In this document: positions 8,478 to 14,051 of the stretch, in pieces
Layout: the number at the start of each line of letters is the position of its first letter
How positions within the stretch are numbered: the stretch's first letter is position 1
Virus genome (UHGV): UHGV-1603728
Origin: a virus
DNA length: 18,018 nt
Direction: 5' to 3' (one strand)
Notes under the pieces: model-generated
Told to the model about the DNA's origin: nothing
The model's database searches: none
The model's input: the letters and a program-made list of their open reading frames with translations, nothing else
Translations under genes and position numbers: made by a program

Positions 8478-8513
8478 ACCACGATATGTGGTATTAAAAC
8501 CACATATCGTGAG
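8478..8513. promoter_or_regulatory. Operators O1 (ACCACgatatGTGGT) and O2 (ACCACatatcGTGag), forming a 13-bp-arm inverted repeat
   Basis: 8479-8491 and 8500-8512 are reverse complements at 12 of 13 positions. They overlap the putative leftward promoter (-35 TTGAAA at 8521..8516, -10 TTTAAT at 8498..8493). Confidence 0.5.
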
Positions 8514-8580: not shown

Positions 8581-8595
8581 ACCACTAAATGTGGT
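8581..8595. promoter_or_regulatory. Operator O3 (ACCACtaaatGTGGT) upstream of the CI-like gene
   Basis: Perfect half-site palindrome of the same family, about 40 bp upstream of the CI-like start. Confidence 0.5.
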
Positions 8596-8632: not shown

Positions 8633-9289
8633 ATGAAAAGCAACGACGAGAACATCAAGAAAGAAATAGGTCTGCGCATTCAGACTCTACGGAAACAATC
8701 CGGCATGACTGCCGGAGATCTCCAGCAAGTCACTGGAATAGGCTTAAGCACCTTGCAGAACTATGAGGCCGGATTAAGACAACCATCTATACCTGCCATC
8801 AAGAAAATCGCGCACGCCCTGAAAGCATCAGCGCCTTATATCGCGTGCTTAACAGATAACCCGTTCCCACCCCAGAATACTAACGCTCCTGTTATTCCTG
8901 GGCTTGTAGCTATAAAAAATGACATAGCATCGCACGCCGGAGAAAAGCCAGTGCTGGCGATAGAACAGGAGATTCTACGAAGCAAGAACATCAACCCATC
9001 GTCTCTGTCAGTTCTCCAGAGCAACGATGAGTTAATGTCACCAACAATATCCCCAGGCTCCCAAGTCCTGATTAATACAGACGATACAGAGATTCATGAG
9101 GGGATCTATGCCCTTGAAGACAGAAATGGCCTGGTTGTTTTGAGGCACTGTAGAGTCATACCGGGTGACAATGCTGTTATGCTGTCAACCGAAAGGGATG
9201 CTGAAATGAACACTAAGCATCTGAATAACGAGGAATTTAAGCGTTATAAAGTTCTGGGCCGCGTAGTTAGTGTTGTCAACTGGTTATGA
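8633..9289 (+). CDS. CI-like repressor: N-terminal XRE HTH plus C-terminal S24 (LexA-like) peptidase-fold domain
   Basis: HTH segment LRKQSGMTAGDLQQVTGIGLSTLQNYEAG. The C-terminus (ELMSPT ... NGLVVLRHCRV ... GRVVSVVNWL) parallels the LexA/CI C-terminal domain. Confidence 0.7.
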   Translation: MKSNDENIKKEIGLRIQTLRKQSGMTAGDLQQVTGIGLSTLQNYEAGLRQPSIPAIKKIAHALKASAPYIACLTDNPFPPQNTNAPVIPGLVAIKNDIASHAGEKPVLAIEQEILRSKNINPSSLSVLQSNDELMSPTISPGSQVLINTDDTEIHEGIYALEDRNGLVVLRHCRVIPGDNAVMLSTERDAEMNTKHLNNEEFKRYKVLGRVVSVVNWL

Positions 9290-9331: not shown

Positions 9332-9346
9332 ACCACGCTTTGTGGT
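9332..9346. promoter_or_regulatory. Operator O4 (ACCACgctttGTGGT) upstream of the 124-aa gene
   Basis: Same ACCAC-N5-GTGGT family; TTGACA follows immediately at 9348-9353. Confidence 0.45.
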
Positions 9347-9381: not shown

Positions 9382-9756
9382 ATGGAATTACATACAGCCA
9401 ATAAAAACGAAACTCTGATCACTGCTGGAATCGAAATCCAAGCGTTGAACATAGCGATTGAGTGTATGTTATGCCAAATCATTGATAATGAGAAAGATAT
9501 CGACTGGATAGAATCTATCCTTCATCTGGCATCAGAACAAAAAGTCTGCCTCAAAACGGCCTTACAATACGATGTGCCAGCGGTATCGAAGCTGTGCCAG
9601 CCATTGATGGCATATAACAGGGCTATTATTTCTGTATGCCTCATGATTCTCGATGAAAACACCCCTCTTAGCGACCGCTCAGAAGCTGCTCTAACCCTCT
9701 CACGTAAACAGCGACAGCTAGCAAATCAACTGATATCAACGATAGCTGACCTCTGA
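9382..9756 (+). CDS. Hypothetical protein (124 aa)
   Basis: ORF with SD AGAGG 6 nt upstream, followed by an 8-bp hairpin at 9759-9780. Confidence 0.45.
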   Translation: MELHTANKNETLITAGIEIQALNIAIECMLCQIIDNEKDIDWIESILHLASEQKVCLKTALQYDVPAVSKLCQPLMAYNRAIISVCLMILDENTPLSDRSEAALTLSRKQRQLANQLISTIADL

Positions 9757-11074: not shown

Positions 11075-11098
11075 AAAAAAAGGCCCCCGAAGGGGCCT
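11075..11098 (-). terminator. Intrinsic terminator (7-bp GC stem, CGAA loop), effective mainly on the minus strand
   Basis: AGGCCCC-cgaa-GGGGCCU with a run of 7 T on the minus strand, directly downstream of the small hydrophobic ORF. Confidence 0.6.
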
Positions 11099-11103
11099 AA
11101 TCG

Positions 11104-11226
11104 CTACTTGCTGCTAATGTTTATCGTCACATTCAGAGCGTTATCAGTAATCTTCCAACCCTCCCCATGTGGCGTAAACAAAGCTCCAGTAACAACGATA
11201 AAAATACACATGTAGTATTTTTTCAT
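11104..11226 (-). CDS. Small hydrophobic peptide (40 aa), candidate type I toxin
   Basis: MKKYYMCIFIVVTGALFTPHGEGWKITDNALNVTINISSK has one N-terminal hydrophobic helix. It is followed by a terminator and preceded by a long 5' leader containing a 20-nt box complementary to a divergent RNA. Confidence 0.35.
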   Translation of the reverse strand: MKKYYMCIFIVVTGALFTPHGEGWKITDNALNVTINISSK

Positions 11227-11290
11227 TGTGTGGCCCTTACAGGCCGTTTCACGGCATCCCCACCGACGAAAATGTCGCGAGAGCAAGCAC

Positions 11291-11310
11291 GCTGTTTGTG
11301 CCTGCGTGGT
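11291..11310. repeat. 20-nt box copy 1 (GCTGTTTGTGCCTGCGTGGT), in the putative leader of the small-peptide mRNA
   Basis: Identical at 19 of 20 positions to 11541-11560. Confidence 0.6.
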
Positions 11311-11498
11311 ACGGCAAGTGGATAATCCTTTCCTGAAAGTCAGTGCCCGGGTGCGAATCGGCGGAAAGGCCCCAAGCCATATTACACGTCATACCCTTCA
11401 TAATGAAGGAATAAAAAACGCTTTTATTACATAAGATTACACGTAAATAAGTTAAAAACCTTCATTTTGCATGAGCTAATGAGCTAAATTTTTTTATA

Positions 11499-11516: not shown

Positions 11517-11643
11517 CCTCAGTTGGGTAAGAATGTAGTTGCTGTTTGTGCTTGCGTGGTTGTATTAGTACAACGACGTTATGCTGAAAGGACCGCGAAT
11601 CCGATCAGCACGAAAGAACCGTCCTCAATAGGGCGGTTTTTTT
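11500..11643 (+). ncRNA. Candidate antisense sRNA (antitoxin-like) containing box copy 2 (11541-11560) and ending at an intrinsic terminator
   Basis: No credible ORF. Box copy 2 read on the plus strand is complementary to the minus-strand transcript at box copy 1 (19 Watson-Crick pairs and 1 G-U). The 5' end is not defined. Confidence 0.3.
11617..11643 (+). terminator. Rho-independent terminator (plus strand)
   Basis: 9-bp stem AACCGUCCU / AGGGCGGUU with loop CAAU, followed by a run of 7 T. Confidence 0.65.
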
Positions 11644-12197
11644 GTTTCTCCCCCTTCCTTCCCAAATGATTCAAATGTTAATGAGAGAGAATCATTTGAT
11701 ATGTTCGATTTAGCGCCGTTATCGACCCAATTTCTGTATGCTTCATCACAACAGTACCTTACAGCAGTTGGAATAACAGGAGAGCCGCCCAGAAATGAAA
11801 ATCCCATTGAGCTTATGCTAATTCTTTCGAATGGCCTATTTCTCAATGCTTCAAATCCCTTGCTGTTGAAGTAACTCAGCATCAGAGGTAAAAGGTTATC
11901 CTCGTCTTGACTGATTGTTCCCGGGAAAAAGTAGTAACCATGGCGATTAAATTCGGGAATCAGTTTTTCTACCAACAACATGAAATTCATTGGGGTAATA
12001 TTAAGGGCAGAGCAAGCACCAAAAAGAGCATCAACCGTTAATACAGACTGTCCGTTCTCTATCTTTGTCCATGCGTTTGGTGTTTTTCCAGCAGCTTGAG
12101 CCAGCACTCCTTGATGCACACCTCTTTCTAGCCTAAGTTCTTTTATGATCATTAGGTGGATTGTTGAAAAACATGAGTTTTTTGACGTTTCAGTCAT
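11625..12197 (-). CDS. XRE-family HTH regulator with a C-terminal domain of unknown function
   Basis: Start trimmed to MTETSK (ATG 12197, SD GGGGAT upstream). HTH segment IKELRLERGVHQGVLAQAAGKTPNAWTKIENGQ. Divergent from the antirepressor operon. Confidence 0.55.
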   Translation of the reverse strand: MTETSKNSCFSTIHLMIIKELRLERGVHQGVLAQAAGKTPNAWTKIENGQSVLTVDALFGACSALNITPMNFMLLVEKLIPEFNRHGYYFFPGTISQDEDNLLPLMLSYFNSKGFEALRNRPFERISISSMGFSFLGGSPVIPTAVRYCCDEAYRNWVDNGAKSNISNDSLSLTFESFGKEGGETKKPPY

Positions 12198-12335
12198 TTT
12201 TTTATCCCCATATTGAATTTTTTCCTTGTTCCCAACTTTAACAAAACACCACAACTCAGGATTGAGTCATTCCTTACAGGAACTATACATTCCCGTCTTT
12301 GGTATATCAAGAAAATTAAAAGCTCGGCATTCAAA

Positions 12336-12350
12336 CCCACACTATGTGGT
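12336..12350. promoter_or_regulatory. Operator O5 (cCCACactatGTGGT) between the HTH gene and the antirepressor operon
   Basis: Same ACCAC-N5-GTGGT family as the sites around the CI-like gene. TTGACA lies at 12375-12380. Confidence 0.4.
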
Positions 12351-12513
12351 TTAGTCTGTTAAAATCCCTCTGTATTGACATGAATGCGCCATTGGTGGAC
12401 ACTTTCCGAGCCGTAGCAAAATCTACGGTCGGGATTAGCCTCCTGAATAACACGATGGCGCATACCGCGTTAGCGGTTTTTTTTATGCGTAGAGCACTGT
12501 TACGCCCAAATTA

Positions 12514-12592
12514 TGGTGGGTCGTACAGGGGCGGAGAAATCCGCGCCGGTTCGTCATTGTGTCCGGTAAGGCTAACCCTGTACGGCTCACCA
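12514..12592 (+). ncRNA. Structured RNA element resembling phage P1 c4 antisense RNA
   Basis: 17-bp closing stem (12514-12530 with 12576-12592) enclosing a GAAA-tetraloop hairpin (12531-12544) and a hairpin with a 13-nt loop (12546-12566). Loop sequences are complementary to flanking target boxes and to the start codon of the downstream small ORF. Confidence 0.4.
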
Positions 12593-12646
12593 CCATTTGA
12601 TTAGCCTCGAATGGCGGTGATAGTTCCATATACTGGAGATATCACA

Positions 12647-12838
12647 ATGACAAACCTACCCCATGACTATTACGTCAACCTCGTAAAGATCCTTCTCAAG
12701 AAAGCCTCATACGCCGATAAATTCCGCCTGGCTGAAATCATCGAGCGCGAAGCTATGCGCATCGCCAGCAACGATAACGCTGTTTCTGACGCAAAAATCT
12801 CCCTCGTAACCAAAGTAGTTATGGGAGGTGCAAAATGA
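12647..12838 (+). CDS. Small protein translationally coupled to the antirepressor (icd-like position)
   Basis: ATG 12647 with SD GGAG 8 nt upstream; its stop overlaps the antirepressor ATG (ATGA). An alternative ATG at 12611 has no SD. Confidence 0.45.
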   Translation: MTNLPHDYYVNLVKILLKKASYADKFRLAEIIEREAMRIASNDNAVSDAKISLVTKVVMGGAK

Positions 12839-14016
12839 AAACGCTTCCGACCGTTAACACCCTACAGCCTATCCTGCATAACCAAATCCCCGTTATCACT
12901 ACTGAACTACTGGCAAAGCTATACGGCACAGACGTTGATAACATCAAAAAAAATTACTCACGTAACGCAAACCGCTTTATTGAAGGAAAGCATTTTTTCA
13001 AAGTGGCTGGCGATGAGTTAAAAACTTTGCGAGTGACTTTAAGTCACTCACAAAATTTGCGACTGGTTTTAAACGAGTCACAAAATGAGGTGCAAATTTC
13101 CCCCAAAACTCGCTCTCTCATCCTCTGGACAGAACGCGGGGCTGCACGTCACGCCAAAATGCTTGAAACTAACCAAGCGTGGGATGTGTTCGAACGGCTG
13201 GAAGACTGCTACTTCAACCAGAACGCGCAAACGGCCGCGACCGTTACCGTCTCGCCAAACAATGCTCGTGAGGTTGTCGATACGCTCAACGCCAAACCGA
13301 TGTTTTACATTAAAGTGTGCAACAACGAGCCACTCACAACCTCAGCCGATGTTGCCCAGGCATTCAGCACCACAAACAATTCCATCGTTATGGCCATCGA
13401 TGCGCTACGCATTCCTCGCACGGCTGCGGCGCGTCACTTCTTTAAAGAGCAACGACCGCTGGAAGGAAGCGACCGCGAAATAACAATCTATCGCATGACA
13501 AAAGACGGATTTACCTTACTCATGGAGAGCATCGACGGTCCAAGCGTGAAAGATATCAAGCTGGCCTACATTGAAGCCTTTAACGCTATCAGCAGCGTGT
13601 TAAAAACACAGTACGAGCGTGATCTGGCTAAACGACTGTACCAGGAAAAAACGATTATCCGCGCGGCAACAGAGCATAATCGGCTATTAACGGAACCGAA
13701 CTACAGGAAGGAACTAATCAAGGAGTTTGACAAGGCAACAGGGAAAACCAAAGCGGCGCTAAATCTGCCAGCAATGACTCAGGAAAATGTGATATCAGCC
13801 TTACTTCTTGATCTGCTCAGAAACGCCAGAGCACTGATCAGCTTTGACGAAAACCTGAATCCTCAGCTCAAGCTACTACCACCGACAGGCAAAGTAGTCG
13901 ACCAGGCAGATCACAACAGCATACTCAGCGTACTGGATGCAAACCTACCAGCCAGGACACTACAGGAACTGATAAAGATATCGGCGGATAAACTGGCCGC
14001 AGGTGCAAAACCATAA
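12835..14016 (+). CDS. Phage antirepressor (ORF6N/KilA-type N-terminal region with Rha-like central domain)
   Basis: N-terminus PVITTELLAKLYGTDVDNIKKNYSRNANRFIEGKHFF is ORF6N-like; the centre PLTTSADVAQAFSTTNNSIVMAIDAL is Rha/Ant-like. 393 aa, SD GGAGG 6 nt upstream. Confidence 0.75.
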   Translation: MKTLPTVNTLQPILHNQIPVITTELLAKLYGTDVDNIKKNYSRNANRFIEGKHFFKVAGDELKTLRVTLSHSQNLRLVLNESQNEVQISPKTRSLILWTERGAARHAKMLETNQAWDVFERLEDCYFNQNAQTAATVTVSPNNAREVVDTLNAKPMFYIKVCNNEPLTTSADVAQAFSTTNNSIVMAIDALRIPRTAAARHFFKEQRPLEGSDREITIYRMTKDGFTLLMESIDGPSVKDIKLAYIEAFNAISSVLKTQYERDLAKRLYQEKTIIRAATEHNRLLTEPNYRKELIKEFDKATGKTKAALNLPAMTQENVISALLLDLLRNARALISFDENLNPQLKLLPPTGKVVDQADHNSILSVLDANLPARTLQELIKISADKLAAGAKP

Positions 14017-14051
14017 AACAAAGCGCCCGATTTGGGCGCTTCTTCAATTCT
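14011..14051. terminator. Bidirectional terminator between convergent genes
   Basis: 7-bp stem AGCGCCC / GGGCGCU (14021-14039) with T-rich flanks on both strands. Confidence 0.55.

Follow-up and report, generated by a model that had tools for sequence, protein, structure and literature searches.

What controls the antirepressor gene of the virus genome UHGV-1603728, and is the region just upstream of it a protein-coding stretch, as one of its called open reading frames (ORFs) would have it, or an RNA gene? The DNA analysed here is 18,018 nucleotides (nt) long and is referred to below as the window. An earlier note on it had proposed a switch of the phage P1 immI type, in which a structured RNA acts on the start of a small ORF that is coupled to the antirepressor gene. 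In the immI region of phages P1 and P7, the RNase P-processed c4 RNA pairs with sites flanking its own gene and blocks the translation of icd and, by coupling, that of ant. Our analysis favours the proposal: an Rfam C4 match, the P1 order of elements, base-pair covariation in 107 homologues and covariation of the recognition sites with their targets across 47 alleles make it very probable that the locus is a c4-type immunity-I cassette, carried on a ~48 kb phage-plasmid, that controls translation of the antirepressor. What is said below on transcription, processing, repression, coupling and the target of the antirepressor is drawn from homologues and covariation and is worded conditionally. 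Cassettes of this type are already covered by Rfam and by earlier descriptions, C4 RNA having been described by Weinberg et al. (2010; PMC2864571).

Scanning all 18,018 nt against Rfam gave three matches above their gathering thresholds, namely C4, isrK and ryfA. The C4 antisense RNA model (RF01695) matches 12509-12597 on the plus strand over its full length (model positions 1-87 of 87) with 70.8 bits against a gathering threshold of 45 and an E-value of 2.6e-12. The closing stem of this C4 RNA gene pairs 12514-12530 with 12576-12592 over 17 base pairs (bp), 15 of them Watson-Crick and two G-U, and encloses a GAAA hairpin (12531-12544) and a second hairpin (12546-12566) of 5 bp with a 13-nt loop; a script and ViennaRNA reproduced every coordinate and pair count of the fold of 12514-12592 given in the earlier note. 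The minimum free energy structure of 12509-12597 (-46.6 kcal/mol, z = -6.35) is also the centroid and the Rfam model structure, and its stability was equalled by none of 200 shuffles, so both the C4 model and the fold, which the same note had named as checks on its proposal, agree with what it described. A covariance model built from seven verified C4s was then run on 100 loci, which came from relatives, from annotated phages and from viral contigs found with a strict pattern, and returned 107 copies (56 distinct). In their alignment 99.9% of cells fall in standard pairs, compared with 36-49% when the partners are slid, and compensatory double changes occur in 14 of the 27 pairs; these values were reached in none of 500 shuffles, and are to be read knowing that the alignment was fitted to the model and that the collection pattern fixed the outermost stem bases. 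The stem, on whose conservation in homologous loci the proposal had been staked, is conserved across these copies. A looser viral-contig pattern, ATGGYGGG...CCGGT(N8)AACCC, was dropped in favour of the stricter one: its 56 loci held a real C4 in only two cases, away from the pattern match, and the ~93 kb contigs that it brought in, first taken as P1 relatives, had neither a C4 nor a match in the phage collection.

Features of an RNase P substrate are visible in the C4 fold, including the acceptor-like stem, a G at 12515 where the mature 5' end of the P1 RNA falls, and a tRNA-like ACCA at 12592-12595 on the 3' side of the stem. RNase P would be expected to release an RNA of about 80 nt (~12515-12594), with ends taken from the alignment to the annotated 77-nt c4 of P1.

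The competing idea that the region is protein-coding, encoding either the 86-amino-acid (aa) ORF 12344-12604 or a member of the 'Ash family', with the RNA structure incidental, is hardly credible. It can draw on RefSeq, whose records of related plasmids have a 95-aa 'ash family protein' spanning the 3' half of C4, and on Pfam, in which Phage_ASH matches residues 2-39 of such 'ash' ORFs with 26.1 bits against a cutoff of 26. However, the 86-aa ORF has no family match in Pfam, PHROG or NCBIfam scans and is truncated or absent in relatives that are ~93% identical over a 1.9-kb region, as expected from the earlier view that it is spurious; in the window the ash-like N-terminal extension runs into a stop, and the longest ORF in that frame begins at 12611; and substitutions across the RNA region keep base pairs, not codons. 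NCBIfam gave no match for the 'ash' ORFs or for the small ORF downstream of C4. 'Ash family' or hypothetical ORFs are annotated across C4 in RefSeq or GenBank at several loci (L005, 1854-2141; L002, 6354-6641; L073, 2618-2731). Part of the Phage_ASH family may itself have been built on translated C4 RNA genes, since positions 64-102 of PF10554 match the translation of the C4 3' half plus the adjoining target site a2.

Which bases would such an RNA use to recognise its targets? Two unpaired parts of the C4 fold find complements in the flanks, all sites lying on the plus strand. The loop of the second hairpin, b' (TTCGTCATTGTGT, 12550-12562), has a pairing core at 12553-12561 (GTCATTGTG) that is complementary over 9 nt to the b2 target CACAATGAC at 12643-12651, which lies over the AUG (12647-12649) of the small leader ORF. 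The linker a' (AGGCTAA, 12569-12575), single-stranded between hairpin 2 and the long stem, is complementary over 7 nt to TTAGCCT, found both upstream as a1 (12435-12441) and downstream as a2 (12601-12607), each within a copy of the 10-nt direct repeat GATTAGCCTC. Both complementarities had been pointed out before and were confirmed by script. The b1 site, ACACGATGGCG at 12450-12460, is a fourth site overlooked at that time, and pairs with 12552-12562 of the loop over 11 nt including G-U. The sites a1, b1 and a2 occupy the relative positions annotated in P1. Calculated duplex energies are -9.3 kcal/mol for a'/a2, -14.4 for b'/b2, -10.9 for a'/a1 and -15.4 for b'/b1. From mononucleotide shuffles of the flanks, the probability of a chance match is 0.003 for the 9-nt loop complement, and 0.018 downstream and 0.021 upstream for the 7-nt linker complement, or ~1e-6 jointly.

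The strongest sign that these matches are under selection comes from the way in which they change together. Identity among three elements is ~93% as a whole but drops to ~79% in the RNA region, where it is the pairing sites that differ: the window has a' AGGCTAA with TTAGCCT at a1 and a2, pOkiPb01714_2 has a' GTTCCAA with TTGGAAC at both, and YpM_41 has a' ACGCCAA with TTGGCGT at both, its b', b1 and b2 being altered together as well. The 107 C4 copies comprise 47 a'/b' combinations made from 17 a' and 33 b' types; the a' allele of the window occurs in one of the 47. Every a' has a perfect 7-nt a2 no more than 7 nt from the C4 end and a 6-7-nt a1 upstream, and in most alleles the b' loop finds 7-13 nt of complement at b2 and b1 (a few have just 4-nt exact matches). 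The longest Watson-Crick match is 7.0 nt for cognate and 3.6 nt for non-cognate a'/a2 pairs, and 8.2 and 4.3 nt respectively for b'/b2, with 0.4% of non-cognate b'/b2 pairs reaching the cognate median. The upstream sites a1 and b1 covary with a' and b' as tightly as a2 and b2 do. As a control, the script that finds the sites recovered the annotated a1, b1, a2 and b2 coordinates of P1 exactly. The a' and b' types occur in varying combinations and one locus (L012) has an antirepressor identical to that of the window beside a different c4 allele, which indicates that the cassette recombines.

In some viral contigs C4 cassettes occur as tandem pairs or triplets (L094, 9709-11108 on the minus strand, with a spacing of 656 nt; also L154, L128, L117, L106 and L142), each cassette with its own a'/b' allele and its own downstream Rha-like ORF, forming antirepressor arrays with distinct specificities. 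Two metagenomic viral contigs, L027 and L034, hold divergent real C4s (54 and 70 bits with the custom model) about 2 kb from the loose-pattern match, and in them a1 and b1 lie far nearer to C4 than at other loci.

The upstream sites are part of a second RNA. Rfam isrK (RF01394) matches 12410-12483 on the plus strand over the full model (1-77 of 77) with 65.7 bits against a gathering threshold of 50, so that the c4-a1b1 region and an intrinsic terminator together form an IsrK-type leader RNA. The leader folds into three hairpins, with a1 in the loop of the second and with the third being the terminator (ACCGC-GTTA-GCGGT followed by T8, 12464-12484, plus strand), which was found both by a terminator scan and as the 3' hairpin and U-tail of the isrK model. 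A short hairpin or terminator had been noticed here before; it is indeed a terminator, and what had been missed is that it ends a full isrK leader carrying a1 and b1. A candidate promoter on the plus strand (12376-12404; -35 TTGACA at 12376-12381, a 17-nt spacer and a weak -10 GACACT at 12399-12404) aligns with the annotated -10 of the P1 promoter P1c4 (P51b) through the c4-a1b1 model and is invariant in three relatives, and it would place the transcription start near 12410.

Downstream of C4, the b2 site leads into the genes that would be regulated. The leader ORF (12647-12838, plus strand) encodes 63 aa, belongs to phrog_7886 (function unknown), shows 98-100% protein identity in 13 relatives and is labelled hypothetical protein in their RefSeq records. 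Its status as a coding sequence is taken from phrog_7886 membership and this conservation: five sites vary in 189 nt among the 13 relatives (three codons with synonymous changes only, two with amino-acid changes), a number that leaves a dN/dS-type test without power. Its TGA overlaps the antirepressor ATG as ATGA (AAAATGAAA, 12832-12840), as the earlier note had stated, and the overlap is conserved in the clade. The antirepressor (12835-14016, plus strand, 393 aa) has, according to Pfam, an ORF6N domain (residues 12-109) and a Rha domain (168-252), followed by a C-terminal region; in PHROG it has matches to many anti-repressor families as well as to phrog_8244, and it is 82-100% identical across the 13 relatives. 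Just past its stop, a G+C-rich hairpin (14020-14042) found by the terminator scan is probably the end of the operon; it scored on the minus strand, its plus-strand T-tail being poor. Between a2 and b2, a hairpin at 12617-12645 (plus strand) buries the Shine-Dalgarno (SD) sequence GGAG of the leader ORF (12635-12638), its 3' strand entering b2; it is found in all five spacer variants of the plasmid family, in which the sequence of the inner stem varies and always pairs.

The position of b2 is informative across alleles. In most of them the first gene downstream has its SD or AUG overlapped by b2 (no ORF is called for 5 of the 47), and the gene under b2, or the gene coupled to it, is the antirepressor wherever there is an annotation. 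The SD under b2 is, for most alleles, that of the antirepressor gene itself; a short leader ORF with a 4-nt overlap into the antirepressor occurs in P1 and in the clade of the window, and only in that clade does b2 sit consistently on the start codon of such a leader ORF.

Taken together, these elements suggest the following course of events. Transcription from the candidate promoter would produce an IsrK-like leader in its first 74 nt, with a1 in a hairpin loop and b1 single-stranded, and many transcripts would stop at the intrinsic terminator while some read through, as at the Gifsy-1 locus. The read-through RNA would contain the C4 precursor, from which an RNase P-type cut would, by homology, give the ~80-nt RNA. 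In trans or in cis, a' (AGGCUAA) and b' (GUCAUUGUG) would then pair with a2 and b2 on the operon mRNA and cover the AUG of the leader ORF, and this block would also silence the antirepressor through the ATGA overlap, if coupling works as for icd/ant of P1 and orf45/anrP of Gifsy-1. The expected outcome is maintenance of lysogeny and an allele-specific superinfection immunity whose specificity is set by a' and b'. The terminated leader would probably compete for C4, because its a1/b1 duplexes are at least as stable as the a2/b2 duplexes, and could thereby tune or trigger antirepressor synthesis.

A fuller version of this scheme, which we put forward tentatively and with confidence a little short of even, is a switch made of three RNAs. 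The a1b1 leader would serve as a decoy, matched to its allele, which draws C4 away from a2/b2; the balance between termination and read-through at 12464-12484 would decide whether antirepressor is made, P1 c4 and Gifsy-1 IsrK would represent one mechanism, the orf45 of Gifsy-1 would be the C4 RNA gene, and the sites would co-diversify as an immunity barcode, with at least 47 combinations in enterobacterial phages and five in a single ~48 kb family.

The same upstream sites admit a different account, in which the leader acts in cis like a riboswitch: a1 and b1 would pair intramolecularly with a' and b' to hold the transcript silent, the short leader would activate it in trans, and there would be no diffusible C4. 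This model has experimental backing at the homologous Gifsy-1 locus, where the long transcript, once paired, is held in a silent form (native gels, compensatory mutations and 30S binding) and IsrK supplied in trans raises anrP translation ~100-fold (Hershko-Shalev et al., 2016; PMC4825925). Numbered from the isrK start, the Gifsy-1 mutations G28A and G31A lie in a1 (U26-U32, UUGGCGU), and the compensatory C162U and C159U lie in a' (A158-A164, ACGCCAA) in exact antiparallel register to a1; combined as G28A/C162U and G31A/C159U, they return the RNA to its inactive conformation and bring the raised basal translation down (PMC4825925). In the window too, a1 and b1 bind a' and b' at least as strongly as a2 and b2 do, by the duplex energies given above, and across alleles they covary with them as tightly. 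The cis account leaves unexplained why a2 and b2 covary in every allele and sit on an SD or AUG, and why the tRNA-like RNase P substrate stem is kept with 99.9% pairing. Moreover, c4 of P1 is a processed 77-nt repressor that acts in trans (Citron and Schuster, 1992, as cited in PMC8546580), and in Gifsy-1 a stable processed RNA complementary to IsrK, STnc1160, accumulates downstream (PMC4825925). As a complete account the cis model is therefore doubtful, and it seems more likely that the c4 antisense and IsrK cis models are two halves of one switch than that they are true alternatives.

The exact fit of the published IsrK mutations to a1:a' suggests that the IsrK and c4 literatures describe one switch. 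The Gifsy-1 'orf45' (34076-34316, minus strand) has its AUG in AUUAUGGUGGG, a conserved sequence at the C4 5' end, crosses the C4 gene as well as a2 and b2, and ends with a stop that overlaps the anrP start. In the literature searched we did not find the mapping of the IsrK mutations or of orf45 onto the c4 system stated; the authors of the Gifsy-1 work likened the IsrK locus to the P4 CI RNA and did not mention c4 (PMC4825925), and a 2025 review lists IsrK and c4 apart. The same review describes orf45 as conserved in nucleotides and variable in amino acids, as is expected of an RNA gene. Transcription of both IsrK and STnc1160 is high in lysogens under all conditions tested (PMC7067206), and Hfq binding and trans-activation of antirepressor translation by IsrK have been shown for Gifsy-1 only (PMC4825925).

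Could pairing instead act on transcription? In a P4-type immunity the C4-like RNA would pair with its flanking sites mainly to cause premature termination, not to block ribosomes. An intrinsic terminator does lie between b1 and c4, and Biere, Citron and Schuster reportedly observed in 1992 that loss of icd translation in P1 lowers downstream transcription. The placing of targets on both sides of the RNA gene also resembles seqA and seqC of P4 (a comparison made in PMC4825925). Pure termination would not, however, need a b2 that sits on the start codon here and on the SD in most alleles, and the terminator scan found no terminator-like structure after a2/b2 in 12598-12700. We regard this mode of action as improbable, and translational control of the antirepressor by a c4-type cassette as the better reading of the locus.

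Several observations weigh against that reading or narrow it. A consensus promoter scan did not pick up 12376-12404, whose -10 fits in only three of six positions. The c4-a1b1 model (RF03163) gives 35.7 bits at 12397-12449 (E = 8e-7), under its gathering threshold of 46.7, which P1, VT2-Sakai and Gifsy-1 pass, and it is the isrK model that passes in the window. Rfam places c4-a1b1 in the C4 clan, its matches overlap those of isrK, and the two models evidently describe overlapping parts of one leader, since the P1 region (68.8 bits for C4, 51 for c4-a1b1 and 35 for isrK) and that of the window score on both. The covariation of the alleles indicates that pairing is selected and leaves undecided whether it acts in trans or in cis, and on translation or termination. 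C4 may not be the sole block on initiation at the leader ORF, because the SD of this ORF is already buried in a conserved local hairpin. The antirepressor has a strong SD of its own (GGGAGG, 12823-12828), and its masking, in which the centroid pairs CUCCC at ~12799-12805 with GGGAGG, is not significant (z = -0.8), so independent initiation is possible alongside coupling. Lastly, the 63-aa leader ORF, which the earlier note had likened to icd, holds the position of icd and is unrelated to it in sequence (BLASTP gave no alignment to Icd), and the antirepressor is of the ORF6N/Rha type, not Ant1 or Ant2 (BLASTP E = 1.3 against Ant1); coupling and the target of the antirepressor are therefore extrapolated.

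On which repressor might the antirepressor act? The window encodes a 218-aa CI-like repressor (8633-9289, plus strand) with an XRE helix-turn-helix (HTH) domain and a C-terminal domain that matches Peptidase_S24 with 18.4 bits, below the threshold of 23.3; a PDB sequence search with it returned generic HTH domains only. Because its usual Ser motif is absent by eye, the sequence reading DELM, this repressor may be non-cleavable and dependent on an antirepressor for induction. Perfect copies of the palindrome ACCAC-N5-GTGGT lie at 8478-8492 and 8581-8595, in the divergent control region of the repressor gene, and at 9332-9346, just after the gene and just before a TTGACA upstream of the ORF 9382-9756; a degenerate site lies at 8500-8512. 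The three perfect palindromes are likely operators of the primary repressor. A further copy at 12336-12350, at the left edge of the conserved module, had been reported as an ACCAC-N5-GTGGT operator: the palindrome itself holds, with four matches in the window compared with 0.26-0.43 expected and none of 200 shuffles reaching four, whereas its left arm is not ACCAC (CCCAC-ACTAT-GTGGT, one mismatch). This shared palindrome suggests that regulation of the c4 operon is tied to the primary repressor, as with C1 at Op51 of P1, and it is the one hint that the antirepressor may act on the CI-like repressor, a plausible target. The site at 12336-12350 is, however, not placed over the promoter but 25 nt before its -35.

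The divergent XRE-HTH gene (11625-12197) had been said to hold a Mnt-like position, but a Mnt-like role is unsupported and we reject it: the gene encodes an HTH_3 protein (Pfam) and, with its promoter region, is an indel. Of 13 close relatives 7 have it and 6 lack it, and the breakpoints lie near 11652 and 12333. Relatives without it keep the whole RNA module, homology running from ~12333 onward. A promoter-like site for this gene (TTGATA-17-TATAGT, 12310-12282, minus strand) has its -10 (TATAGT, 12287-12282) within an imperfect 17-nt direct repeat at 12257-12293 (CAGGATTGAGTCATTCC / CAGGAACTATACATTCC, 20-nt spacing).

The window is matched best by 47-50 kb circular plasmids of E. coli and by three Yersinia myophages of 49 kb. 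The relatives are annotated with RepA, ParA, a RelE/ParE pair, a Hin-type invertase with tail-fibre genes, Ref and a CI-like XRE repressor, and this combination marks the host element as a phage-plasmid of ~48 kb. One member of the plasmid family is the 48,488-bp plasmid carried by E. coli ATCC 25922, whose c4 allele differs from that of the window, and in PLSDB the RNA region of the ~48 kb family falls into discrete identity classes (at least 98%, 88%, ~81% and ~79%).

Between the ParA region and the HTH gene, the ryfA match (11076-11374, minus strand) scores 135.4 bits against a gathering threshold of 80. This stretch contains a small ORF with a hydrophobic core (MKKYYMCIFIVVTGALF...) and is conserved, mostly without annotation, in 58 PLSDB plasmids of ~48-52 kb. 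It may be a plasmid-addiction module; Salmonella RyfA is the mRNA of the TimP type I toxin.

What the locus adds to the known cassettes is a leader ORF that is not Icd, an antirepressor of the ORF6N/Rha type, a b2 placed over the AUG, a conserved hairpin that buries the SD, and an a' allele found in one of the 47 combinations sampled. In the related records inspected the C4 RNA is unannotated or called as protein ('hypothetical', 'ash family protein'), and the right call removes spurious ORFs. The cassette would determine immunity in a common family of E. coli phage-plasmids, to which the 48.5 kb plasmid of ATCC 25922 belongs. Near-identical plasmids with discrete, matched c4 alleles amount to a natural series of compensatory mutations, and predict which family members would be mutually immune.

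How, finally, does the cassette compare with known immunity systems? In the immI region of P22 (sar, arc, mnt, ant) an antisense RNA likewise limits antirepressor synthesis in an accessory immunity region. There, sar is a cis-antisense RNA transcribed from the strand opposite its target, and the repressors Mnt and Arc are of the ribbon-helix-helix type. Here the RNA lies on the strand of its target and would make short loop contacts, and the neighbouring XRE-HTH gene is dispensable in relatives. The CI RNA of P4, with seqA and seqC, is similarly a processed, structured immunity RNA with complementary sites either side of its own gene. It acts by premature transcription termination, and controls replication genes rather than an antirepressor; no P4 RNA family was matched in the Rfam scans of the window.

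In Stx/lambdoid and Uetakevirus phages (for example VT2-Sakai, phiv142-3 and ZX5), isrK and C4 lie directly upstream of an antirepressor gene with complementarity at three sites, as here, but C4 targets the SD of the antirepressor directly, without an independent leader ORF, and these are integrated or lytic-capable phages, not plasmid prophages. Gifsy-1 (L197, NC_010392), in which isrK, C4 and isrJ matches bracket the antirepressor gene anrP, shares with the window the adjacent isrK and C4 upstream of the antirepressor, the terminator after the a1/b1 leader, a stop/start overlap into the antirepressor and the a1:a' pairing, which by the mapping of G28/G31 and C162/C159 is experimental there. 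It differs in that b2 lies on the anrP SD region and that its only 'leader ORF' is orf45, running through C4, whereas the window has a separate conserved 63-aa ORF, no isrJ match downstream and no adjoining Q-type antiterminator.

The closest counterpart remains P1 itself. The two differ in that b2 covers the SD in P1 and the AUG here, that the a2-b2 spacer is 22 nt in P1 and 35 nt here, with its conserved SD-burying hairpin, that the leader here has a stronger terminator and passes the isrK threshold while that of P1 does not, and that the backbone of the ~48 kb element is unrelated to P1. The GenBank record of P1 gives the order promoter P1c4, a1, b1, 77-nt c4, a2, b2, icd (73 aa) and ant1, the last overlapping icd by 4 nt, and describes a and b as target sites of C4 RNA through which icd/ant translation is repressed. 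The window shows a homologous RNA in the same arrangement as P1/P7 immI, from promoter, a1 and b1 through c4, a2 and b2 to a short ORF that overlaps an antirepressor gene by 4 nt, with a tRNA-like stem ending in 3' ACC(A) and a plasmid prophage as host in both; in P1 and P7, allele-specific a' and b' are the basis of heteroimmunity.

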